From IMG/VR virus record IMGVR_UViG_3300031519_000144, positions 1 to 30,269 of that record: a stretch of DNA of 30,269 nucleotides. One strand, written 5' to 3'. The position numbers were made by a program, and so were the translations under genes. The notes under the pieces were generated by a model. It worked only from the letters and a program-made list of their open reading frames with translations, was not told the origin of the DNA and ran no database searches. Positions 3,065-30,269 of this stretch are shown in pieces. This stretch comes from a virus. Taxonomy: Duplodnaviria; Caudoviricetes. The first letter of the stretch is position 1; each line of letters opens with the position of its first letter.

Positions 3065-3079
3065 AAACGTGTGATTATA
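3065..3079 (+). promoter_or_regulatory. Candidate phage promoter/operator motif AAACRYGTRATTATA (copy 1)
   Basis: AAACGTGTGATTATA in an intergenic gap; matches 13817-13831 at 12/15 positions, with all differences being transitions. Confidence 0.4.
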
Positions 3080-3116: not shown

Positions 3117-3461
3117 ATGAAAAAATTATTTATTACATTATCATTACTATTTACATTTTCAATTTTAACAGCTCAAGAAGACTTTAATGGCATGTGGGAA
3201 AGCGAAGACTCGTCTTACATAACCACTATTATTGCAAGTGAGTATAAAGTTTTAAATGTGTTTAACACTAGTTTTTTAGAATATAGAGTTATAACTGAAG
3301 ATATAATTAGTAGCGACAAAAATAAATTTACAACAGAATTGAATAATGAACAAAACGGTTATTCAGTAACAATAGAATACACATTAAAAAACCAAGACAC
3401 TCTTATTCTAAAGTATTCAAAAGACTTAGAAGGGGAATATATACTAACTAGAATAAGATAA
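3117..3461 (+). CDS. Secreted/periplasmic protein with Sec signal peptide (small beta-barrel-like)
   Basis: MKKLFITLSLLFTFSILTA|QEDFNGMWES: basic N-terminus, hydrophobic core, Gln at +1 and a GxW motif. Confidence 0.7.
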   Translation: MKKLFITLSLLFTFSILTAQEDFNGMWESEDSSYITTIIASEYKVLNVFNTSFLEYRVITEDIISSDKNKFTTELNNEQNGYSVTIEYTLKNQDTLILKYSKDLEGEYILTRIR

Positions 3462-4535: not shown

Positions 4536-4763
4536 ATGAATAATATTATAAGAAAGATTAGTATCGGGGCTGACTACAAGAACGAAGCTATGCATTACTC
4601 TGTTAAACAGACAGTTTATGGCGGTCACGAAATTTCTCATATAATGTTTGAAGAGTCTGATAATTCTTATAATATATTTATAAAAAAAGTAGACGAGGTA
4701 ATGCCATGGAAGAAGTTTAATTCTAACATGGCAATATCCGTTGAGTATGACTTGGAGTATTAA
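4536..4763 (+). CDS. Hypothetical phage protein (IRKISIGxDYK)
   Basis: 75-aa ORF translationally coupled (TAATG) to the GroES-like gene. Confidence 0.7.
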   Translation: MNNIIRKISIGADYKNEAMHYSVKQTVYGGHEISHIMFEESDNSYNIFIKKVDEVMPWKKFNSNMAISVEYDLEY

Positions 4764-5368
4764 TGAGGAGCATATATGATTTTATCATACGCCCAGTAGG
4801 CAAAAGATATGATAATGAGGTTAAGGTCGGAGAGCAAACCCTTATAACAAATAGCTCTATAGAAAGTTTTAAACACGTTAACAATATAGCTGAAGTAGTG
4901 GAAACACCTGCAGCATTTGCGACACCTATAAAGAAAGGTGATTTAATAGTTGTGCATCATAATGTGTTTAGAGTATTCTATGATATGAAAGGAATTAAAA
5001 AGAACAGTAGGTCATTCTTAAAAGATGATCTTTTTATGTGCGCTATAGATCAAGTATACTTATATAAAAAAGATAAATCTTGGAATTCATTTGGAGATAG
5101 GTGCTTTGTTGCTCCTGTTAAAAATAAAGACCTTTTAAGCAGTCAAAAAACTGCAGATCTTATTGGTATACTAAAAATAGGTAATAACTCCTTAAAGGAG
5201 TCTGGAATCAATCCAGGAGACATAATTGGATTTACGCCTAATAGCGAATGGGAATTTGTTATAGATAATCAAGTTATGTACTGTATGAAATCAAATGATA
5301 TTGTTATAAAGTATGAACTCGATAGAAACGAAGAAGAGTATAATAGCCGCTGGGCGGGAAGCAATTAA
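4763..5368 (+). CDS. GroES/Cpn10-like co-chaperonin with two tandem GroES-like halves
   Basis: AEVVETP...IKKGDLIVV and FGDRCFVAPV...GINPGDIIGF...EFVIDNQVMYCMKSNDIV match GroES sequence patterns. Confidence 0.7.
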   Translation: MRSIYDFIIRPVGKRYDNEVKVGEQTLITNSSIESFKHVNNIAEVVETPAAFATPIKKGDLIVVHHNVFRVFYDMKGIKKNSRSFLKDDLFMCAIDQVYLYKKDKSWNSFGDRCFVAPVKNKDLLSSQKTADLIGILKIGNNSLKESGINPGDIIGFTPNSEWEFVIDNQVMYCMKSNDIVIKYELDRNEEEYNSRWAGSN

Positions 5369-13816: not shown

Positions 13817-13831
13817 AAACACGTAATTATA
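13817..13831 (+). promoter_or_regulatory. Candidate phage promoter/operator motif AAACRYGTRATTATA (copy 2)
   Basis: AAACACGTAATTATA in the intergenic gap ahead of the tail/ejection gene block. Confidence 0.4.
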
Positions 13832-16040: not shown

Positions 16041-19000
16041 ATGGCTCAAGAAATTAAGAATACATTTCTAAAATCCAAGATGAATAAAGATCTTGACGAT
16101 AGAATATTGCCTAACGGCGAGTATAGAGATGCTCGGAATATATCCGTAGGTAGATCCGAAGATAATGATGTTGGAGCTTTAGAAAATATTATAGGTAATA
16201 ACTTAATTACTTCTACTGATATAGGAGATGGGCTTACAATAATAGGTATAAAAGAAAATAATTCAACAGACGAGCTATTTGTTTTTTTAACAGATTACAC
16301 TGACCCTAATCCTTTAGAACCTACAGATGCTCCTTCTACATCTAGACATTACATTTATTCTTATAATAATTCTACACAAATATATAGTCGTTTAGTTCAA
16401 GGCTATTTTTTAAACTTTTCAACAACCAATAGAATAATAGGTATAAATTTAATTGAAAGCTTATTATTCTGGACAGACAATAGAAACCAACCACGTAAAA
16501 TAAATTCAGGAATTTCCATTAGCGGTAATTCAAAACGAAGTTCACAAGATTATTATACGCAAGAGCATCAAATATCTGTTGCTAAATACAGCCCGTATCA
16601 AGCTATAAAGCTATATACTCGACTTGACGTAGACATTACTAATGGATCTGTAGCTTACATCAATGTAAGTGGAGATAGGGTAGCGGAAATAACTCCTTTT
16701 ATAGGGGCAACAGTTGTTTCTTCAGAAAATTTAATATCAGGAAACGAACACATTAAAATAATTAATGTTGCTTTAGTAGGTAGCGCTACAAGAATTTCTT
16801 TATCCCCTAATATACCTGTTCCTTTACCTAACACTTACTTTTCTTTTATTATGTCTACTATGACTAATAAAAATGATGATACAGATTGGCCTGGGGATCC
16901 TGATTTTTTAGAAGATAAATTTGTTAGGTTTAGTTACCGTTTTAAGTATGATGATAACGAGTACTCTTTAATGGCTCCTTTTACTCAAATAGCTTATATA
17001 CCAAAGCAATACGGATTTTTTCTTAGTGGAGATGAAAACTCAGCTTATCAGTCTACAGTAGTAGACTTTATGGAAAATTTAGTTCAAAACATTGGGCTTG
17101 TAATACCGTTACCTACTAATGCTAATAGATTAGTTAGAGATTATAAAATCTCGGAAATGGAAATACTTTTTAGAGAAAGTGATGGTGTTGCTGTTAAAGT
17201 TTTAGAAAGTATTACAGCCGGGCAAATATCAGGAGCCAGCGGAGTGAGTAATTTTTTTACTTATGATTATCAATCTAGGAAACCATATAGAACTTTGCCG
17301 GAAGCTCAAACAATTAGAGTTTACGATAAAGTACCCGTAACCGCTTTTTCTCAAGAAAGCTCAGGAAATAGAATTATATACGGTAACTATAAAGACCAGC
17401 ACACTCCTCCTGCTAACTTAAATTATAACTGTAGAATATCATTTAAAAGTGATACAGGCAAATTTAATAACTGGATAGAGTATCCAAATCATTCTGTAAA
17501 AAGAAATAGAAATTATCAGGTAGGCTTTATTTTAGCAGACAAGTTTGGAAGACAATCCCCTGTTATACTTTCATCTGTAGACACTGGAGCTAATAGTGAT
17601 GGTAAATTTTATTTTGGATCTACCATATATAGTGCTTATGACATTGGCAATGAAGATACAAGTGTATTGGATTGGTTTGGTGATTCTATAATGGTTTTGG
17701 TTAATTCCGAAGTGGCTTCTATAAAAAATTCCGCTACAGGAACTCCTGGACTTTATGCGATTAAGCAAAATGCTACTAATCCTAATGCGGAAGGTTACGC
17801 TATTAAAAGATCGGGTAGTGTAATAGTTGATGACTCTACATATACTTTTCGCTTAGACAATATAAATTTTCCCAATAATATAAATATACCAATAATAGGG
17901 GATTCGTTGAGAGGTGCTTATGAAGACTTTGTTTTTGTTACAAACATAGAGGGTCCTACTGGAGCTCAACTCCAATATACGGTAACAACTAGTGGTAGAG
18001 TAAACGATGTTTACCTTAGAGAAGCTGATATTGTAACTGGAGGAGGGATTCCTGATTTAAAATTTGCATATACTATAAACGATTTAGGTTGGTATAGCTA
18101 TAAAATAGTAGTTAAACAGACAGAACAAGAATACTACAATGTATATTTGCCTGGAATGCTTAATGGTTATCCTGGACAGTCTGGGAGCTTAGGCGATGCT
18201 TCTAATGTTCCTGATCCTATACCCCCAACTCCTGGAGGTATTGATAATGGACTATTTCCTACAAATGAAACAAATAAAACGGCTTTTACAGTATTGTTTA
18301 ACGACAATATAAATAAAATACCAAGAGATTTACAAGAAGTTGGTGATCAAGATTTACAATATAGAAGTTCTGTTACATTATACGGTCGAGTAACTAATAC
18401 AATGACAATTGATCCAAGCGGTAGTCCTTATACCAATTCAATTCCTTCTAATTCTCAATATTACGCTAGATTAGACTACGAAGGTAAAACGGCAATATCA
18501 CATACCTCTACAGCTATAGCAAGAGCTAAAGAAGTTAATATGGGATCTGCTGATTTAACTGATGTGCCTTTACTATATAGTGAGCAAGCGTATAAAGGCG
18601 CAAACGTTTTTTATCAATTAGAAACTAATCCGTTAATAGCAAGAATATCCACAACTGAAAAATCAATTGGAGCAACAGCTTTATGGGGACCAACTCCTTC
18701 CGGAGGAACTGCTCCTGTTAACATACCAGATGGCGCCAATAACATGTTACCTTTTCTATCTATATATGAAACACAGGCGGTTAACTCTTTATTAGATTTA
18801 TATTGGGAAACAGCTTCTGAAGGTTTAATAGTAGATTTAAACGCTGATGTTCTTAGTGGTGCTGGAGGAGCAACTTCTTTTGTTAATGTTACATGGGATT
18901 TTGATGAAACGACTCTTCCCAACACAATTGTTACAGGTGTTTTTGAACCTGTTAATAGTGAAGCAGAGGTATACCAAGTTCCTACAACGGCTACATTGGA

Positions 19001-21023
19001 AAGCCAAACAGATGGAAATGGAGAAAATGTAGAATTGTTTGAGTTACGATCTTTTACTAGCGGAAGTAATCAAGGTAAATATCAAATAGCTTTTAAAGGT
19101 GATGATAATGGAGATTCATTAGTTTTTGATGCGTCCAGTAGAGCATTAGATGTTTATAGCTTTGTAATAGCTGTTACTACAAGCGACGATATAACAACCG
19201 AAATACCTTTAACAGGACAAATAGGTGGGTTTGGAGCATTAAAGAATATTGCACCTTCTTTTTCTACATTACCTAATTCAGCAGTAACTAATACTACTTC
19301 AGTTATATATCCAGCTGCTAATTGGACAAATACCGTAAACGGTACAGCTTCTGATTTTGACGGCGCAAAAACTATAGGCCTACAGTTTTCTATGGAGTGG
19401 CTAGGAGCCCCAGAATTAAACCCTATAGATTTATATGGATGGGAAATGGATGCCTCAAACGGCCAAATAACACAACCGGTTCCGCCTGATGATAATACTC
19501 CAAATCCTAACGGAACATGGGAGATTCGATTAACTATGCAGGATGCTTTTGACGTAGGTTCACCTACTGGCGATTATAGTTGGCTATTTGATTTTCAAAA
19601 CGTCACTATAACATTGGGTTATCCAGCAGTTAATCCATTAGCTTTGTCTAACATTTGTGTACTGTCTACGCCTATGGGCCCTTATTTTAATGGGTTATTG
19701 ACTAACGCCTCGTCTAAGCCTACTGTGGCTGAGTATCAAGGTATAACAGTACCTGTTAGCGATGAAGCATTTCCACTTGGACCCCCGGGGACCCCCCGAG
19801 CTGATTATAATTCCCAAGGCTTTACTACGTCATCAACTGGATTATGGTTTATTGGTAACCAAGACTTGGAACTTATTAATACAGACAATTTGGATGGGTA
19901 TTGGCCTCCGGAATATGACGACGTAAGGAATGACCAGGCCGGCACAGAACCGACTTTTGGGGGGAGCACAGGTACTGGTATATTTCCTAATGAAGGAGCA
20001 GCAGGAACCCCGTATCAAAGCTACAATAAAAAGTATCAAATAGGTGGGAATGTTGCTGGACCTTTTAGTGCCCAGGCTCACCGTAGCGGAACTATAATGT
20101 TTACAATAAACGTTTTTGCTAGTAATGTGCCTTTTAGTGATGTTGCTGTTGGAACATTACAACCTATTAGTGTTTTTATTTATTATAGGAAAGCTCAAGC
20201 GACAGGAGATGTAGATCCTTGGACAGAAATACCAAATAGTGGTGCATTAGAATACAATAATGTACGACTTAGGCCTAATTTTGGAGATTGGCCGCCTTAT
20301 GTAAACGGCTACAAATACGATGGAGATGAAAAAACTTTCGTACAATATGTTAGAGCATTTAATAAGAGCGACTTTGATACTCCTGGCTCCACAGAAGATA
20401 TTGAATATGCTATAATAGTTAAAGGCTTAGAATTTGTTGGGGGCACCGGAAGTGGTATCCACCATCCTATAGCTTGGGTTACCGCTGACGACGTTCACTA
20501 TCCTAAATGCTTAAATTGGCAAGGGACAAACGCTGCATTAACGAGTACTAATACTAGAGCCGGAGCAACTCCAGGAGTGGCTGGAAGTGGATCTTTTAAA
20601 TATGAGGCTTCCGCAGGATCAAATAATAGCGAAACTTTTGATAGTAATTTTACTCAAACACTTTATGCGGATAATCCCTACGGAGATTACGTAAATAATT
20701 TTTACACAGATGTAGGATTAACAACTGTATGGGAACCTAATGAAGGCGAACAATTCATTAATTATAGATTAGTTCAAAGCGAATTTAATACTACTTTGCC
20801 AAATTGGATCGTGCAAAGAGGTGGGGGTTCAGGGGAAGATTCTATAAAAATGCAATGGATTTCTGAATTTCAAATACCTGGCGGTGAAAAAGCTGCACGT
20901 TCTGAAGGTACAGTTTCAAAATCTTTTTTAGTTGGAGCTTATACTGGAGGACCAGGTACTGTTATTTTTCCAGCAACTGCCGTTTTTGGAACCACAAGGC
21001 TGTTTATAAAAACCAACATTTAA
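16041..21023 (+). CDS. Tail stabilisation (nozzle/muzzle) protein, N-terminal part, with long C-terminal extension
   Basis: Starts NTFLKSKMNKDLDDRILPNGEYRDARNI; LFWTDNRNQPRKIN, RFSYRFKY, GNRIIYGNY and YQVGFILADKFGR are typical of crAss-like stabilisation proteins. Confidence 0.75.
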   Translation: MAQEIKNTFLKSKMNKDLDDRILPNGEYRDARNISVGRSEDNDVGALENIIGNNLITSTDIGDGLTIIGIKENNSTDELFVFLTDYTDPNPLEPTDAPSTSRHYIYSYNNSTQIYSRLVQGYFLNFSTTNRIIGINLIESLLFWTDNRNQPRKINSGISISGNSKRSSQDYYTQEHQISVAKYSPYQAIKLYTRLDVDITNGSVAYINVSGDRVAEITPFIGATVVSSENLISGNEHIKIINVALVGSATRISLSPNIPVPLPNTYFSFIMSTMTNKNDDTDWPGDPDFLEDKFVRFSYRFKYDDNEYSLMAPFTQIAYIPKQYGFFLSGDENSAYQSTVVDFMENLVQNIGLVIPLPTNANRLVRDYKISEMEILFRESDGVAVKVLESITAGQISGASGVSNFFTYDYQSRKPYRTLPEAQTIRVYDKVPVTAFSQESSGNRIIYGNYKDQHTPPANLNYNCRISFKSDTGKFNNWIEYPNHSVKRNRNYQVGFILADKFGRQSPVILSSVDTGANSDGKFYFGSTIYSAYDIGNEDTSVLDWFGDSIMVLVNSEVASIKNSATGTPGLYAIKQNATNPNAEGYAIKRSGSVIVDDSTYTFRLDNINFPNNINIPIIGDSLRGAYEDFVFVTNIEGPTGAQLQYTVTTSGRVNDVYLREADIVTGGGIPDLKFAYTINDLGWYSYKIVVKQTEQEYYNVYLPGMLNGYPGQSGSLGDASNVPDPIPPTPGGIDNGLFPTNETNKTAFTVLFNDNINKIPRDLQEVGDQDLQYRSSVTLYGRVTNTMTIDPSGSPYTNSIPSNSQYYARLDYEGKTAISHTSTAIARAKEVNMGSADLTDVPLLYSEQAYKGANVFYQLETNPLIARISTTEKSIGATALWGPTPSGGTAPVNIPDGANNMLPFLSIYETQAVNSLLDLYWETASEGLIVDLNADVLSGAGGATSFVNVTWDFDETTLPNTIVTGVFEPVNSEAEVYQVPTTATLESQTDGNGENVELFELRSFTSGSNQGKYQIAFKGDDNGDSLVFDASSRALDVYSFVIAVTTSDDITTEIPLTGQIGGFGALKNIAPSFSTLPNSAVTNTTSVIYPAANWTNTVNGTASDFDGAKTIGLQFSMEWLGAPELNPIDLYGWEMDASNGQITQPVPPDDNTPNPNGTWEIRLTMQDAFDVGSPTGDYSWLFDFQNVTITLGYPAVNPLALSNICVLSTPMGPYFNGLLTNASSKPTVAEYQGITVPVSDEAFPLGPPGTPRADYNSQGFTTSSTGLWFIGNQDLELINTDNLDGYWPPEYDDVRNDQAGTEPTFGGSTGTGIFPNEGAAGTPYQSYNKKYQIGGNVAGPFSAQAHRSGTIMFTINVFASNVPFSDVAVGTLQPISVFIYYRKAQATGDVDPWTEIPNSGALEYNNVRLRPNFGDWPPYVNGYKYDGDEKTFVQYVRAFNKSDFDTPGSTEDIEYAIIVKGLEFVGGTGSGIHHPIAWVTADDVHYPKCLNWQGTNAALTSTNTRAGATPGVAGSGSFKYEASAGSNNSETFDSNFTQTLYADNPYGDYVNNFYTDVGLTTVWEPNEGEQFINYRLVQSEFNTTLPNWIVQRGGGSGEDSIKMQWISEFQIPGGEKAARSEGTVSKSFLVGAYTGGPGTVIFPATAVFGTTRLFIKTNI

Positions 21024-21033
21024 AAAACCAATT

Positions 21034-22626
21034 ATGGCTGCAAATATAGAATTAAAATATTTTAATACATTCTGGTTAAAAAAAATCAAGACAATAGCAG
21101 ACGTTAAGAATGAACTTGATAACGGAGATCTTATTACGGCTTCTTTGACATCAGTTAGTGGTACTACTTTTACTATTAATACCGCATTAGACGATACCCT
21201 TATGAATGTAGGTCAACAAGTTACCATGACCTACACTAATTTATTAAATGTAGTCTTAGAATATAATTCCTATATTATTTCAAAAACTAGTGACAATGTA
21301 TTTTTAGCAGCAGCTGGAGTTATTGATGGAGTATCAGGAACTCCTACAATGACTTTTGGTAAAATAATAAACTTTGATAATATACCTCAAGCTTATGCTC
21401 CTACAATAACTAGTGATTGGTTTATTGAAGAGTCAAGAATTAATGGAGGTTACAATAATACGTCGGTTGATTTTGGGGTTAAAGCATATTTAGTTGAAGA
21501 CGAAACTAATCAATCAAATAGGTTTAGTTCATTAATACATTCTGGTATATTTAATTCTAGAACTGGTATTAATCAAACAAATCAATTTAGCGTAGGCGAA
21601 GATATAACTAGAACAATAGATCCGGCTAATGGATCAATACAGAAACTTTATGCTGAAGATACTAACCTTATTATATTTCAAGAAAATAAAGTAAGTAAAT
21701 CTTTAATAGATAAAGACGCTATATATGCAGCGGAAGGTACAGCTATAACTACTTCAGGTGCTCAGGTTATTGGGCAAAACGTTGCTTTTGGTGGTGAATA
21801 CGGAATATCAACAGATCCAGAGTCCTTTGCGGTTAATGGCTATAGAAAATACTTTACAGATAGAGATCAAAATGTTGTTTGTAGATTGTCTGTGGACGGT
21901 ATAAGCGTAATATCTAACTTTGGTATGACCGACTTTTTTAGAGATAAATTATCTACTGCAAAAGTAGGTGGAGTAAAAGGGGGATGGGATGCTCATAATA
22001 AGCAATACGTTTTATCTATAGAATCAGATCCTAATAATAATAATAAAGGATTACCTGAATACAATACATTATCGTTTGATGAAAGTGTAAAAGGTTGGAC
22101 GAGTTTGTTTAATTATAAACCTAATCAAATTATTAGTTTAAATAATGATTATTTTACAACCTTCTCTGGGGAAATATATAAACATTACACATTGGCACCT
22201 AATACAAGTGCTAGAGCTACTTTTTACGGTATTACATATAATTCCAATGTAACCTTTGTGTTTAATGGCAATCCTTCAATTGTTAAAAACTTTCAAACAA
22301 TAAATTATGAAGGAGATAGCGGATGGAAAATGCTAAGCTTTAATACTAGTACCGACACAGCTTTTCCTATAACTCAATCCATTTTTGCAACCACTCTTGA
22401 AGAATTACAAAATTCTTTATTAATAAATAGATTTAAAGTAAAAGAAAACAAATATTTTGCAGATATAGTTAATGCTACATCGGCTCAAAGTGGCGAAGTA
22501 GTATGGGGAGGTTCTTCTTCAGGAATAAAAGGATTTTTTGGAGAAGTAAAAATGCAAATAGATAATGCTAGCAATGGTAAAAAAGAATTATTTGCCGTAA
22601 GCACAGGATTCGTACAATCATCTTAA
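21034..22626 (+). CDS. Tail stabilisation (nozzle/muzzle) protein, C-terminal part
   Basis: GSIQKLYAEDTNLIIFQENKVS, GEYGISTDPESFA, YFTD and TLSFDESVKGWTS beta-propeller-type motifs (P22 gp10-like). Confidence 0.75.
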   Translation: MAANIELKYFNTFWLKKIKTIADVKNELDNGDLITASLTSVSGTTFTINTALDDTLMNVGQQVTMTYTNLLNVVLEYNSYIISKTSDNVFLAAAGVIDGVSGTPTMTFGKIINFDNIPQAYAPTITSDWFIEESRINGGYNNTSVDFGVKAYLVEDETNQSNRFSSLIHSGIFNSRTGINQTNQFSVGEDITRTIDPANGSIQKLYAEDTNLIIFQENKVSKSLIDKDAIYAAEGTAITTSGAQVIGQNVAFGGEYGISTDPESFAVNGYRKYFTDRDQNVVCRLSVDGISVISNFGMTDFFRDKLSTAKVGGVKGGWDAHNKQYVLSIESDPNNNNKGLPEYNTLSFDESVKGWTSLFNYKPNQIISLNNDYFTTFSGEIYKHYTLAPNTSARATFYGITYNSNVTFVFNGNPSIVKNFQTINYEGDSGWKMLSFNTSTDTAFPITQSIFATTLEELQNSLLINRFKVKENKYFADIVNATSAQSGEVVWGGSSSGIKGFFGEVKMQIDNASNGKKELFAVSTGFVQSS

Positions 22627-25492: not shown

Positions 25493-28400
25493 ATGGATAT
25501 ATATATAGTAATAGTAAACGGTGTTAAGCAAAGAGTTACAATATCACCAGAAGAATATGATGGATTTATAGCAGAGTATCCTGACGCTATTTTAGAGGAA
25601 AAAGAAACTCAGGATTTTCAAGCAGACACTGCAGCGGATGTAGATGTAGTGTCGGAGAAAGTAACATTAGATACGGATTCTGCATCGGAAAATGGTTCTT
25701 TGGAATTAACAGAAACATTTAAGCCTGAGTCAGAAGAACAACAGCGCGTTGATAAAGCTATGGCTGATATTAAGGCTATAGAAATAACGCCTGAGCTCGA
25801 AGCAGAATGGGAAGCGGAAGTTAATTCTGGTCCTGTAGATATTATGGTCGACAACCCAAATAGCGGTTGGAACGACAAGTCTACAAAAATGCCTTATGAT
25901 AATAAGGTTAAAGAAGCTAGAACAATGCTTGCTAAAAACCAAAAGGTTAGTGAAGCAGAGGTTCCCTCTGACGATGTTATAAAGCTAGCTAAAACCCTTA
26001 CGGTAAAAGAAAAAAGACAAGATTGGCTTGCAACAAAAAGAGAAGAAGCTTTTGAAAGGTATGAAGACGATGTAAATCCTCTATTATCTTTTAATCCTAT
26101 AGACAAATTTATAAAACAATACGCTCCGCCTGGAATGTATGAAACTGATGTAGAAGAAGAATATAGATTAGGTAGAAAACAAATGACCTCTAGGTTTAAC
26201 AATGAATTTTTAGAAAAGGAGAAAGAAATTGATAATAGATCAAAAAGCATTGATGAAAATGTTGCTTTAATGGATGTTGCTAAGTTAAAAATCCAAGAAC
26301 TAGACACTAAGTATATAAACACACCTAATGAAGTAACTGCAGAAGAAATAAACGAATATAAAAACCTAGTAGAAACTTATAAAACTGCTTATGGTTCAGC
26401 TATATCTGCTTCTGACGGGTTAAGTGAAATGGCTACTGACTCAGATGACATAGAGGTTTTAGCGGATATGGCTAAAAGAACTTATAACAATGTTGATGTT
26501 GCTACTAATAGAATAAAATCCGCTGCAGTAAATTTAGCAAGCGGTCTTGGAATATTAGGATCTGAAATTAATATACAAGCGGTTTTAAAAAGAACCGGTG
26601 TACTTGATGATGAAAATGTAGGAGAACTACCCGTTTTTATGCAAAATTGGTATAAAGCCGGAGATGAAGTTAACAAAGGCATTAAAGCTGGTTCAGCAAA
26701 ATTATACGAAGTTGCTAATGAAATTACAGGAGCCACGAAGCATAGACAAGAATTTGAAGGAGCTGCGGATAGCCTAGAAAACTTTGGCGAGTTTATGCTT
26801 GATTTACTTACAGAACAATCTGTAAATACAGCTATAACCGTGGGTACTGGAGGCGCTGGTTTACTTATTTTAGCAGGAGGTGCTGCTGGTAATAAGATGA
26901 ATGAAATGAACGAAGAAATATTAGAAGGAGAAAATATTTCACCCGCTCAATTTTATGCCGCAGGTCTTTTATACGGAGTAGCGGAATATGTAACTGAAAA
27001 AGTTTCTTTGGGTCAAGCTTTACGAGGTTTAAATGCAATGGGTCTTCCTGTAAAAAACTTTACCAAGGCATTTGATTTAGGCAGCTCAGGTTTAAAAGGA
27101 GGAATGACTTTTGGTAGAGCTTTTAAAAGATGGGGAAAAGGTATTAATCAAGAAGGTATGGCGGAGCTAGGGGCTCAACTTAGTAATAATTTAGTGGATA
27201 ATTATTTATTGGGTAAAGATGTATCTATTACAGATGGGCTTAGTGAAGCTTATATTACCGGTGGATTGATGTCAGGATTAGGGTTTGGAGCTCCTGTAAT
27301 TGCTACAGATATAGCTAAAGCCTTTATGAACGATGGATTGATGGCTAAAAGAAACGATCTTTCTGCTAAAATGCTACAATTAAGTAAAGATCAAGAAAAA
27401 ATACAGTCTCAAAGCTTAGGTGTTTTTAATAAAGAAGCAGCGGAAGCGTATAACTTATTGCAGAAACAAAAAGAAGCTCTTTTGTTCGAAAGCCATAGGC
27501 TTATGAAAAACGTATCAAGCACCGTTGATGCTTTAGATAGTACTGATAGACAAAGATTAATAGATTTAAGTAATGATACTTACAATTTAAAAGCTGAAAA
27601 CGAAAAGCTTAATAAGAACACGATGATTCCTAAGGAGGCATTGAAAGGTCTTATAGAAGCAAATACAACTAAAATACAATCTAATAACAATCAGCGTGAC
27701 TTAATTCTTGACAACACTTTATATTCTAAAGATAAAGCTATGGCTGATAAACTAGCGGCAGACTTTATAGCAAAAAATAATTTAGGAGAGTCAATACTTT
27801 ACATAGACGGTAAAACAACCGATGAGGTTGCTGATCAAATGAAAGCTGAAGCAGACAAAGCCGTTGCTGAAGGAAAAATTACTCCAAAACAATATACTAA
27901 ACTAAAAACAGATATACAAGCTTTTAAAGAAACAAAAGGCGTAGAGGGCGTTTATATAGGCCAAGACGTAGGCATTCCAATGGTAGCCACTGTAGAAGAT
28001 GTTGCTCTCGGCACTCTTGGGGTAGAAGTACCGTTTGCGCCTGGACAATATAATGGAGCGGTAAAAAGACACGAAGTTGGGCATGCTATTTTATTCAGTA
28101 AGTTTTTAACAGGTAATCCAGCAGCTTACAAATTAGTAGAACAATTTGAAAAGTACATGATCAATAATTACAAAGGCGCTGCTGAACGATTTGCTGCTGT
28201 TGATGCTAATTATCCTCCAGGTAAGTTTACTAAAAATAAAATACTAGAAGAAAAGCTAGCCACCATGCTAGAATACGTTTCAAAAACAAATATTTCAATG
28301 GATAAAACCTTTTCAAATAAGGTTATGAATATATTCAAAGGAGATAAAGATTTTTCTAAATTAGAATCTGTAAAAGATGCTGAAGGTGTTTTAGGTATGT

Positions 28401-30269
28401 TACAAAGTTTTGCTAGGATACTTGACAAAGGAGATCTTACAGGTGAAGAATTAGCAGCAAAAGTAGTTAAAGGAGAAGTTGTGGGTACAACAACAGCGGA
28501 TGTTGATGCAACAGCAGACACACAGGCTAAAGGGCCTACTTTTTCTTTAAAAGCACAGCTGAATAAATTTGAAACAGCTCTTGAAAAAATAGAAGAGGAC
28601 TATGACAATAATATACTTGACTACGACGACTACGAACAAAAAAGAGATTTACAAGAAGAAAGAATAGCTGCTGTAAAAAAGAAAATTGAATCTGTAGGTG
28701 AAAGCGAAGTAGTGTCTAAGCCTAAAAAGAAAAAAGAAAGTACCGCTGATCAAAAAGAGCAAAACGCGGAGGTAGATGCTTTGGTAGGCGAAAAAGATGT
28801 TGAAGGAAATTACATATCAAGTAAAAAAGAATGGTTGAAAGACGGTGTAGCTAAAGCTTATAACGCTATAGTTAAGGGAAATTTAATAGACGGTTTAATA
28901 GTAAAAGGTATTGTAGGTGATACAGTGCAAGGCAAATCTGTTGCAGAGTTTGTGCAGGAAGTTAAAGAAAGCTTAACTCCTCTTTTAATGAGATTTAATC
29001 CTGAAATTAATAACAGTCTAATAGGTTTTATTAATAGTCAATTGCGTTTTAGAAAAGGTGATGCTCTTAAAAAACTTAGAAAGAGTAAAACAGAAGATAT
29101 TGACTCGGGCACAAGAGAAATGAATGCTATTGAAAACAAAGCAGACAAAACCTCTAAAGAAACTAGACAGGAGCCTATAGGCAATCTATTAAAAGCAACT
29201 AGTCTAATATCTCAAGCTACAAGAAGTAAACTAGCTGAGGGCCTTAAGAAATGGGCTATAAGCAATAAAATTGATTTTGATAATTTTAGGTTTAGTATGG
29301 TGGACACAACACTTACTATTACAGATGAATTAGGTAACCCTGTGTTTCAAGAGCTTAAAGGAAAACAAGTTGTAGAGTCTTTATTAGATGACGCTATGCG
29401 CGAAATATTTCCTAATGTTAGTCCTGATAAAATATTAGACACTAGAAAAATGTTTACAGGTAAAGAAGCTAGCGCAATGCACAAAGCTTTTATTGCCGAT
29501 GTTGTTGATCCTGATTCTGTTATAAAGTCGAGTGATACCGACAATTTAGCTGGAATATTTATAAAAATATTACCTAAAGGAGCTGTTGCTGCTGATGGTA
29601 AAAACAAAGCACTTGCTAAAGATGTTAACACAAATAAAGCTACTGCTTTAGATCCTAGTATTTTACAAAACTTCTATGTTAAATCCGGAAATGCTATTGG
29701 TAAGACTGGATTACAGGAATATGTTTTAAAAGATAATATTAGATACAGTGACGTTTATGCTGCTTTTGGTATGGATTCAGCTGGAAATAAAACTACTTAT
29801 AATCGTAGCGGAAACACTAGATCTGTATTAGCTGCTTCTGGTAGATTACTAGGACAATTAATGATGAACGAAGTTATTCGTACTGATCTTGGTTTAACTA
29901 CTGAACAGCAATTAAATACAGCTGCAGGTAAAAGTGATGCGATGTTTAGTATTCAGAAACAATTAGCTAACAATGTAACTCCTATAAACAAACTTTCAGA
30001 AGCAAAACAATTGCAAATTTATAATTTAGCAGGCGAGGGAATAAGAGAGGTGCAAAATAAAATAGCTAATTTAAAAGAAATTATTTTAGCTATAGATGGA
30101 GAGCCTGTATGGATCGCAGAATATATGCCTTATGTTGAAGCCGTTATAAAAGATTTTAAAATTAGATCAAAAGAAAAATGGCCTAGATCTGAAGAAAGAA
30201 TTATTGAGGCTTTTATGGAAATTAAAAATTTACCTAAAGGAATTGAAATACTTCAAGAAATTCTTAATA
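25493..30269 (+). CDS. Giant multidomain internal virion/ejection protein (partial, >1590 aa; runs off window end)
   Basis: Hand translation from ATG 25493 (MDIYIVIVNGVKQ...) finds no in-frame stop to 30269. Gly-rich hydrophobic region ~26820-27310, HEVGH at 28070-28084, sigma-2-like segment ~28850-29083. Confidence 0.88.
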   Translation, partial: MDIYIVIVNGVKQRVTISPEEYDGFIAEYPDAILEEKETQDFQADTAADVDVVSEKVTLDTDSASENGSLELTETFKPESEEQQRVDKAMADIKAIEITPELEAEWEAEVNSGPVDIMVDNPNSGWNDKSTKMPYDNKVKEARTMLAKNQKVSEAEVPSDDVIKLAKTLTVKEKRQDWLATKREEAFERYEDDVNPLLSFNPIDKFIKQYAPPGMYETDVEEEYRLGRKQMTSRFNNEFLEKEKEIDNRSKSIDENVALMDVAKLKIQELDTKYINTPNEVTAEEINEYKNLVETYKTAYGSAISASDGLSEMATDSDDIEVLADMAKRTYNNVDVATNRIKSAAVNLASGLGILGSEINIQAVLKRTGVLDDENVGELPVFMQNWYKAGDEVNKGIKAGSAKLYEVANEITGATKHRQEFEGAADSLENFGEFMLDLLTEQSVNTAITVGTGGAGLLILAGGAAGNKMNEMNEEILEGENISPAQFYAAGLLYGVAEYVTEKVSLGQALRGLNAMGLPVKNFTKAFDLGSSGLKGGMTFGRAFKRWGKGINQEGMAELGAQLSNNLVDNYLLGKDVSITDGLSEAYITGGLMSGLGFGAPVIATDIAKAFMNDGLMAKRNDLSAKMLQLSKDQEKIQSQSLGVFNKEAAEAYNLLQKQKEALLFESHRLMKNVSSTVDALDSTDRQRLIDLSNDTYNLKAENEKLNKNTMIPKEALKGLIEANTTKIQSNNNQRDLILDNTLYSKDKAMADKLAADFIAKNNLGESILYIDGKTTDEVADQMKAEADKAVAEGKITPKQYTKLKTDIQAFKETKGVEGVYIGQDVGIPMVATVEDVALGTLGVEVPFAPGQYNGAVKRHEVGHAILFSKFLTGNPAAYKLVEQFEKYMINNYKGAAERFAAVDANYPPGKFTKNKILEEKLATMLEYVSKTNISMDKTFSNKVMNIFKGDKDFSKLESVKDAEGVLGMLQSFARILDKGDLTGEELAAKVVKGEVVGTTTADVDATADTQAKGPTFSLKAQLNKFETALEKIEEDYDNNILDYDDYEQKRDLQEERIAAVKKKIESVGESEVVSKPKKKKESTADQKEQNAEVDALVGEKDVEGNYISSKKEWLKDGVAKAYNAIVKGNLIDGLIVKGIVGDTVQGKSVAEFVQEVKESLTPLLMRFNPEINNSLIGFINSQLRFRKGDALKKLRKSKTEDIDSGTREMNAIENKADKTSKETRQEPIGNLLKATSLISQATRSKLAEGLKKWAISNKIDFDNFRFSMVDTTLTITDELGNPVFQELKGKQVVESLLDDAMREIFPNVSPDKILDTRKMFTGKEASAMHKAFIADVVDPDSVIKSSDTDNLAGIFIKILPKGAVAADGKNKALAKDVNTNKATALDPSILQNFYVKSGNAIGKTGLQEYVLKDNIRYSDVYAAFGMDSAGNKTTYNRSGNTRSVLAASGRLLGQLMMNEVIRTDLGLTTEQQLNTAAGKSDAMFSIQKQLANNVTPINKLSEAKQLQIYNLAGEGIREVQNKIANLKEIILAIDGEPVWIAEYMPYVEAVIKDFKIRSKEKWPRSEERIIEAFMEIKNLPKGIEILQEILN

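Follow-up and report, generated by a model that had tools for sequence, protein, structure and literature searches.

The sequence analysed here, referred to as the window, is a single virus contig (Duplodnaviria; Caudoviricetes; IMG/VR record IMGVR_UViG_3300031519_000144) of 30269 bases with a completeness estimate of 47%. Its plus strand carries a block of structural genes, the final one being a giant open reading frame (ORF; 25493..30268, + strand) that encodes 1592 amino acids before the window end; a near-identical full-length copy of this giant late protein, P0003, has 2825 amino acids. The initial annotation had proposed a sigma70 region 2-like domain inside this protein at positions 28850-29083 (+), and profile comparison, predicted fold and the conservation of FNP and G-aromatic-IN residues bear this out. 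The interval is stop-free, in frame with the ORF from 25493, and encodes residues 1120-1197, i.e. the peptide originally pointed out plus two residues in front. It is confirmed as the core of a domain of about 120 residues resembling sigma regions 1.2-2.4 (residues 1085-1204; 28745..29104, +), hereafter the module.

As judged from sequence comparison, the likeness of the module to sigma factors is beyond chance at the family level only. Residues 1085-1270 have 74 relatives among 1.84 billion representatives, mostly proteins of 2000-3600 amino acids or fragments. After removal of a spurious row (P0075) and of short rows (P0063), and with an 80% identity filter, the window and 58 other stretches form an alignment of 59 rows, A5. 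Sigma70_r2 is the Pfam family matched by most A5 members, namely 7/59 with E values up to 1 (best E 1.2e-6), the row of the window not being among them. The best PDB profile match of the family is a sigma factor (E 0.13), and the language-model neighbours of the domain are sigma clusters (0.94-0.95). The A5 profile was also compared with 34 bacterial sigma region 2 (sigma2) segments from five assembled genomes and E. coli: 74 columns aligned in register with a score of 30.8 (P 4.8e-5), while the reversed control scored 8.9 and 60 block shuffles reached at most 21.1 (mean 12.1). When 46 segments along the giant protein were compared in this way, only the 2 over the domain scored 28, the next one 16.6. 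Furthermore, when 19 additional module variants were pooled, the match probability was 80 for bacterial sigma2 and 97 for A5. Whole-protein alignments used as PDB profiles returned coiled-coil noise only, and a scan of close relatives in IMG/VR confirmed 0 of 16 candidates. The possibility of stand-alone forms of the module was rejected: a search for 55-221 amino acids returned six proteins, all on contigs no longer than about 1 kb, which we read as fragments.

The predicted structure gives the same picture. In an AlphaFold2 model of residues 1085-1486, the predicted local distance difference test (pLDDT) value is 94-97 over residues 1095-1194. Among 307 Foldseek-ranked and realigned chains, each of the best 50 is either a sigma factor or a chain of sigma size from a polymerase complex, and the sigma matches cover regions 1.2 to 2.4 with Z values of 5.2-6.7. 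RpoS (6omf_F) is the top match (Z 6.7, root mean square deviation (rmsd) 3.1, 89 residues aligned), followed by T4 gp55 (7d7c_F; Z 6.5, rmsd 4.5, 111 aligned). Z values in this range would not settle the matter for a helical domain by themselves; what does is that four methods agree.

In the E. coli sigma factor, residues D403, Q406 and E407 serve in core binding, and F419, F427, Y430, W433 and W434 are the melting aromatics. With F1168 placed on E. coli F419, EFVQE of the window falls on DLIQE (403-407) and FNP on FEY (419-421). Counted over the 59 rows, F1168, P1170 and G1178 are invariant (59/59). Position 1179, corresponding to Y430, is aromatic in 59/59, position 1176, corresponding to F427, is L or F in 59/59, and N1181 is kept in 42/59. 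At the positions of D403, Q406 and E407 in region 2.2 the window has E, Q and E; the family has D or E in 32/59 (1152), Q in 16/59 (Q1155) and D or E in 34/59 (1156). Conservation had been anticipated for QE, FNP and GF-IN: FNP and G-aromatic-IN are kept, whereas QE is kept only loosely.

Compared with known sigma-70 domains 1.2-2.4 (PF04542; RpoS 6omf_F, RpoH 8hkc_E, RpoE 4lup_C, SigE 8b3z), the module has the same predicted fold (72-98 residues, rmsd 2.2-4.2), and the region 2.2-2.3 register and the key aromatic are retained. It differs in its identity of 12-18%, in falling below the Pfam cut-off, in lacking the W pair and a detectable sigma region 4 (sigma4), and in its location inside a 2825-aa protein. 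The module would work like a sigma-70 domain 2; as it scores below the Pfam cut-off and no sigma4 was found, its full membership of the sigma-70 family stays putative.

Several features surround the module in the giant protein. Upstream lies a zincin-type metallopeptidase signature (28067..28261, +), with HExxH at residues 860-864 and EE downstream at 919-920; 57 of the 63 full-length homologs have HExxH 150-450 residues ahead of the sigma core. Two FS junction motifs, both candidate cleavage sites, are located at residues 1014-1021 (28532..28555, +) and 1482-1489 (29936..29959, +) and frame a piece of about 470 residues. This piece consists of a charged helical segment (28556..28744, +), which varies among homologs and is missing from some, the sigma2-like domain, a disordered low-confidence linker (29105..29182, +; pLDDT <50 over model residues 122-146) that starts at an S[LI]D-like motif of the homologs, and an alpha/beta domain of about 250 residues in the position of sigma4 (29174..29950, +; pLDDT 82, predicted template modelling score (pTM) 0.83). 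The FS patterns were picked after inspection of the data: [KQMRT][FY]S[KLRMI] occurs 176 times in 79 proteins versus 70.5 in shuffles (maximum 89), and a looser form occurs 240-420 residues past the core in 48/63 homologs (chance 36%) and 60-200 residues ahead of it in 37/63 (chance 29%).

For the domain of about 250 residues there was no usable language-model match, and the 122 Foldseek-ranked chains that were compared gave no clear fold match (best Z 2.6), a limited look in which absence is weak. A helix-turn-helix suspected by eye behind the sigma2-like domain is unsupported by profile comparison. The domain is a candidate upstream-element reader.

The giant protein has the build of an MPTase-type polyvalent protein, being large and combining a zincin HExxH and downstream Glu with unrelated effector domains. 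The main text of Iyer et al. (2017, PMC5512222) describes polyvalent proteins with a zincin-like MPTase, for example N4 virion RNA polymerase and P1 DdrB, and proposes that zincin MPTase domains release domains of phage polyvalent proteins by autoproteolysis. As in the proteins described there, the protein carrying the module is late, large and made of several domains, an HExxH peptidase among them; unlike them, its cargo is a sigma domain and its FS junction motif recurs. In that main text the word 'sigma' occurs 0 times. A D[FYA]D[GI]D polymerase catalytic motif is absent from P0003 and from the other listed homologs of at least 1500 amino acids. A wider catalytic pattern matched two short ORFs only, among the matches listed for four related genomes. 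The initial annotation had seen neither a sigma region 4 nor a DxDGD motif, which holds as far as tested (10 downstream segments and the long homologs, respectively), and one of its two options, a sigma-like module in place of a virion RNA polymerase, agrees with the lack of a catalytic motif in the long homologs.

The giant protein is likely an internal or ejected virion protein. It is so placed because of its gene slot and its N-terminal homology to annotated structural proteins, phi19:3 gp129 and Elemovirus gp18. According to Pfam and PHROGs, the plus-strand block of the window contains a GroES-like gene and terminase, portal, capsid, ring and muzzle genes. The muzzle genes, the one upstream of the giant ORF being of crAss-like type (PF25729), are followed by ORFs of 251 and 518 amino acids and then by the giant ORF, which is open at the window end. 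This structural gene order is that of Cellulophaga phage phi19:3 and Elemovirus, and likeness to Pachyviridae is judged from gene order and single-protein matches. The capsid protein of the window is matched by 85 phage records, the named hosts among those displayed being all Flavobacteriaceae, and is 41-44% identical to that of Elemovirus.

The genomic context of the module was followed in fifteen IMG/VR contigs reached via the homolog P0008, 10 of which have a direct A5 match. All four near-complete relatives (4/4) encode, on the opposite strand, a separate sigma factor of about 250 amino acids with both sigma2 and sigma4 (probabilities 97 and 93). The embedded domain is no close copy of this stand-alone phage sigma (match probability 0.6). 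Two classes of promoter-like motif are present. The early motif, TTTRCAAA-N3-AATACG-N10-GATAATATA, repeats ahead of small opposite-strand genes in the relatives, with 39 sites in 8 related contigs versus 0.04 per shuffled genome, and none was found between genes on the late strand. The late-type motif, with a CGTAAT core, stands ahead of structural genes and of the gene directly behind the stand-alone sigma. Both classes have a TAAT core in common. The window, a contig with the late block only, has a late-type motif ahead of the tail/ring genes (13821..13830, +) and a second, weaker one ahead of the ORF at 3117 (3069..3078, +). The distance from an early motif down to the stand-alone sigma gene is 2.0-2.6 kb, or five same-strand ORFs, in G002 and G004; G003 and G005 end earlier.

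TAnnTTTG is the host-type promoter consensus, with a spacing of 16-18. Three module-free relatives, phi19:3, an Elemovirus and MW202828 (no detectable module or sigma), were compared with the 15 contigs of the module lineage, the window included; because the genomes are related, Fisher values for these counts exaggerate the contrast. TAnnTTTG precedes 29/86 genes with a gap in the module-free relatives versus 5/179 in the module lineage, and 0/8 upstream regions in the window. Conversely, the early motif is found upstream of 0/86 versus 28/179 genes, and the late motif upstream of 1/86 versus 33/179. The early motif was also considered as a host promoter and rejected: it has no TAnnTTTG, and the spacing from TTGCAA/TTTACA to GATAAT is 20-21, not 16-18. 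In phi19:3 and Elemovirus, the module, the stand-alone sigma and the early motif were not detected; these phages differ from the module lineage in having host-type promoters and giant proteins that are alike only N-terminally.

The association was also examined in reverse. A scan of IMG/VR for the exact early motif found 178 loci, with an estimated ~670 stored stretches. Among its first 80 rows, 26 new contigs of at least 49 kb were picked by the motif alone. Nine of these 26 match A5 in frames of >2500 amino acids. A zincin search in 18 motif-picked contigs located 10, all 10 with a sigma2-like stretch behind the zincin; several of these stretches are more canonical than that of the window, and 6 score >9 bits alone. 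In total, the module was found in 19/26 contigs (9 by A5, 10 by zincin).

Two side observations concern the same genomes. Contigs L034-L040, 59-65% identical to the stand-alone sigma of this clade, are binned with unrelated assembled genomes (Aliivibrio, Clostridium, Arcobacter, Bacteroidetes); they are probably mis-binned phage DNA. An imperfect palindrome of about 50 bp (GCGAC/GTGAC..TAGC..AT-rich..TAGTAAGAGGCTA..GTCGC/GTCAC) recurs where early and late genes diverge and ahead of the gene that precedes the stand-alone sigma: G002 45620 (-), G003 56776 (-), G004 3456 (+) and 55117 (-), G005 6277 (+) and 61282 (-), G001 48123 and 50260 (-), and G006 1999 (+). The palindrome is possibly an operator, an origin or a packaging signal.

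We favour, with a probability of roughly 0.55, the reading that the module is a virion-delivered, injected early sigma factor and that the stand-alone sigma serves later genes. The giant protein would be packaged and injected, as its gene slot and its homology to annotated structural proteins suggest. Its own zincin would then likely cut it at the FS junctions and free the piece of about 470 residues, which would dock on the host RNA polymerase with sigma2 on the beta-prime clamp helices. Sigma2 would read and melt the GATAAT element and so open the phage early promoters, while the downstream domain would read the TTTRCAAA/TACG elements, whose spacing does not resemble that of a sigma4 target. 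The stand-alone sigma would serve the CGTAAT promoter class of middle and late genes. Because motifs of the early class are non-host and precede the stand-alone sigma gene, the reader of the early motif should arrive with the DNA, and the embedded domain is the sole candidate for an early reader within a likely virion protein. Two sigma-like proteins for two promoter classes would be the simplest account. Of the two effects first suggested for the module, redirecting and sequestering host polymerase, the non-host early motif in relatives appears to favour redirecting. From these relatives, whose domain is about 50% identical, we infer that the phage of the window has both the early motif and the stand-alone sigma. 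Somewhat more tentatively, with slightly less than even confidence, we propose that a widespread marine flavobacterial-type clade has dropped host promoters in favour of a two-sigma programme on the host polymerase: a virion-packed, injected sigma of new build in a self-cleaving polyprotein (sigma2 plus an unmatched DNA-reading domain where sigma4 would be) for early genes with a three-part promoter, and an ordinary sigma for middle and late genes.

Several observations weigh against this reading, and they are given here with the alternatives on which they bear. The early block does not lie within the window. The query alone has no sigma match in Pfam, PHROGs or PDB sequences and is below the curated cut-off of Pfam Sigma70_r2, and a bacterial sigma2 hidden Markov model has its best site at the module in only 22/75 giant proteins (5.8 expected). 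In the motif-picked contigs, the A5 and zincin searches did not locate the module in 7/26, and 4/10 of the zincin-located stretches score 3.3 bits or less singly, with the anchor set by eye. Moreover, motif, module and stand-alone sigma mark one clade, and their co-occurrence counts are not independent.

The alternative that survives best, though an unlikely one, dispenses with the embedded domain as a reader: the early motif would be read by the stand-alone sigma, whose first copies would come from leaky transcription by the host, or by a host sigma, and the domain would do something else or be a structural relic. A protein with sigma2 and sigma4 is indeed encoded in all the near-complete relatives, and Sigma70_r2 is matched in 22/26 motif-picked contigs, nearly all of these matches being the stand-alone gene. 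The TAAT core common to the two motif classes is a further point in its favour. However, the stand-alone sigma cannot easily start its own expression, because its gene lies downstream of the early motif; it is the late class that lies directly behind its gene and ahead of the structural genes. There are two motif classes and two sigma-like proteins, and a relic would sit poorly with the strong conservation of sigma-like residues in the embedded domain.

Also improbable is that the module opens no promoters at all. As a decoy, the injected sigma2-like domain would fill the sigma site of the core polymerase and shut off host transcription, or tether the polymerase to the entering DNA. With such a function, nothing present at infection would read the non-host early motif, and the invariant FNP loop and aromatic residue at the Y430 position would go unaccounted for. 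On the other hand, the W433/W434 pair is replaced by S/Q and the R436/Q437 positions are variable (altered W pair and -12 reading positions), and none of the 10 downstream segments has a sigma4 profile match (best probability 4; control stand-alone sigma 93). In addition, sigma2 variants differ greatly between close relatives, among which they are swapped, while GATAATATA stays constant; this is odd for a domain meant to read GATAATATA. No clear link emerged when sigma2 variants were compared with promoter variants. The giant ORFs of L005, L007 and L002/L003 carry three different sigma2 variants inside near-identical flanks, which points to a putative cassette-like exchange of this one domain.

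The virion location depends on the annotation of distant relatives that share the N-terminal part only, homology to the structural proteins of cultured phages spanning residues about 160-990. The giant protein might accordingly not be packaged, or not only, and instead be made late and cut by the zincin in the cell, the sigma piece being an intracellular late transcription factor or repressor. This we regard as very unlikely: the gene occupies the same last-in-block slot as those of the annotated structural proteins of phi19:3 and Elemovirus, and the motif that lacks a reader is the early one, not the late one. Finally, a helical bundle resembling sigma2 by chance is hardly credible, for although the query alone is without a match and all structural Z values are <8, a range the tool calls common for helical bundles, the results from profiles, Pfam, the language model and the fold concur, the alignment keeps its register, and the variants that bridge the two families look closer to canonical.

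An injected early sigma may be compared with several known systems. T4 gp55, a small protein that stands alone and is produced inside the cell to serve late genes, has no region 4 and depends on gp33 and gp45. Like gp55, the module is a strongly diverged sigma encoded by a phage, with domain 2 as its basis; unlike gp55, it is fused into a likely virion protein, has an extra domain of its own and is linked to early genes. Virion RNA polymerases are known from crAss-like phages. With these, with that of N4 and with T4 Alt, the module would have in common that an injected protein secures early transcription, a role that is putative for the module. In contrast to the crAss-like and N4 polymerases, the module protein, as judged from its long homologs, has no polymerase catalytic motif and would act as a specificity factor, not an enzyme. 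In the available text of PMC7824862, the phage sigma factors are stand-alone only, and the literature searched, incomplete for subscription journals, contains no description of a virion-embedded sigma.

To secure early transcription, phages are known to use the host holoenzyme, to inject a polymerase or to inject a modifier, T4 Alt being an example. If true, delivery of a sigma with the virion would be a further route, in a common marine clade. It would also make available a promoter-reading domain that is new, along with a sigma and promoter usable as an orthogonal pair in Bacteroidota. No phage culture is needed to test the finding, since the ends of the fragment, a candidate promoter and, as controls, a second promoter class and a second sigma are specified.

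A few further features of the giant protein and of the late block deserve mention. Within the part common to cultured relatives, residues 443-466 (26819..26890, +) form a Gly/Ala-rich hydrophobic stretch (hydropathy 1.4-1.6) that is possibly a membrane segment. Past the window end, P0003 has a strongly conserved C-terminal domain of about 700 residues (~2100-2825), common to giant homologs and without a Pfam match, and, between FS motifs at ~1890-2060, a WDFDDT-motif domain, which we take to be HAD-like and which occurs in some homologs, not others. A small stand-alone metalloprotease-like ORF (HExxH; PHROG 87, DUF6782) lies in the late block at 1735-2046 and is a second candidate processor of the giant protein. 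The muzzle-type gene at 16041-22626 (PHROG 14478) is split over ORFs of 1660 and 530 amino acids, while it is a single gene in the profile. The GroES-like gene (4763-5368) precedes the terminase, and the late block of G003-G005 additionally has a 517-aa GroEL-sized gene and an 85-aa gene.

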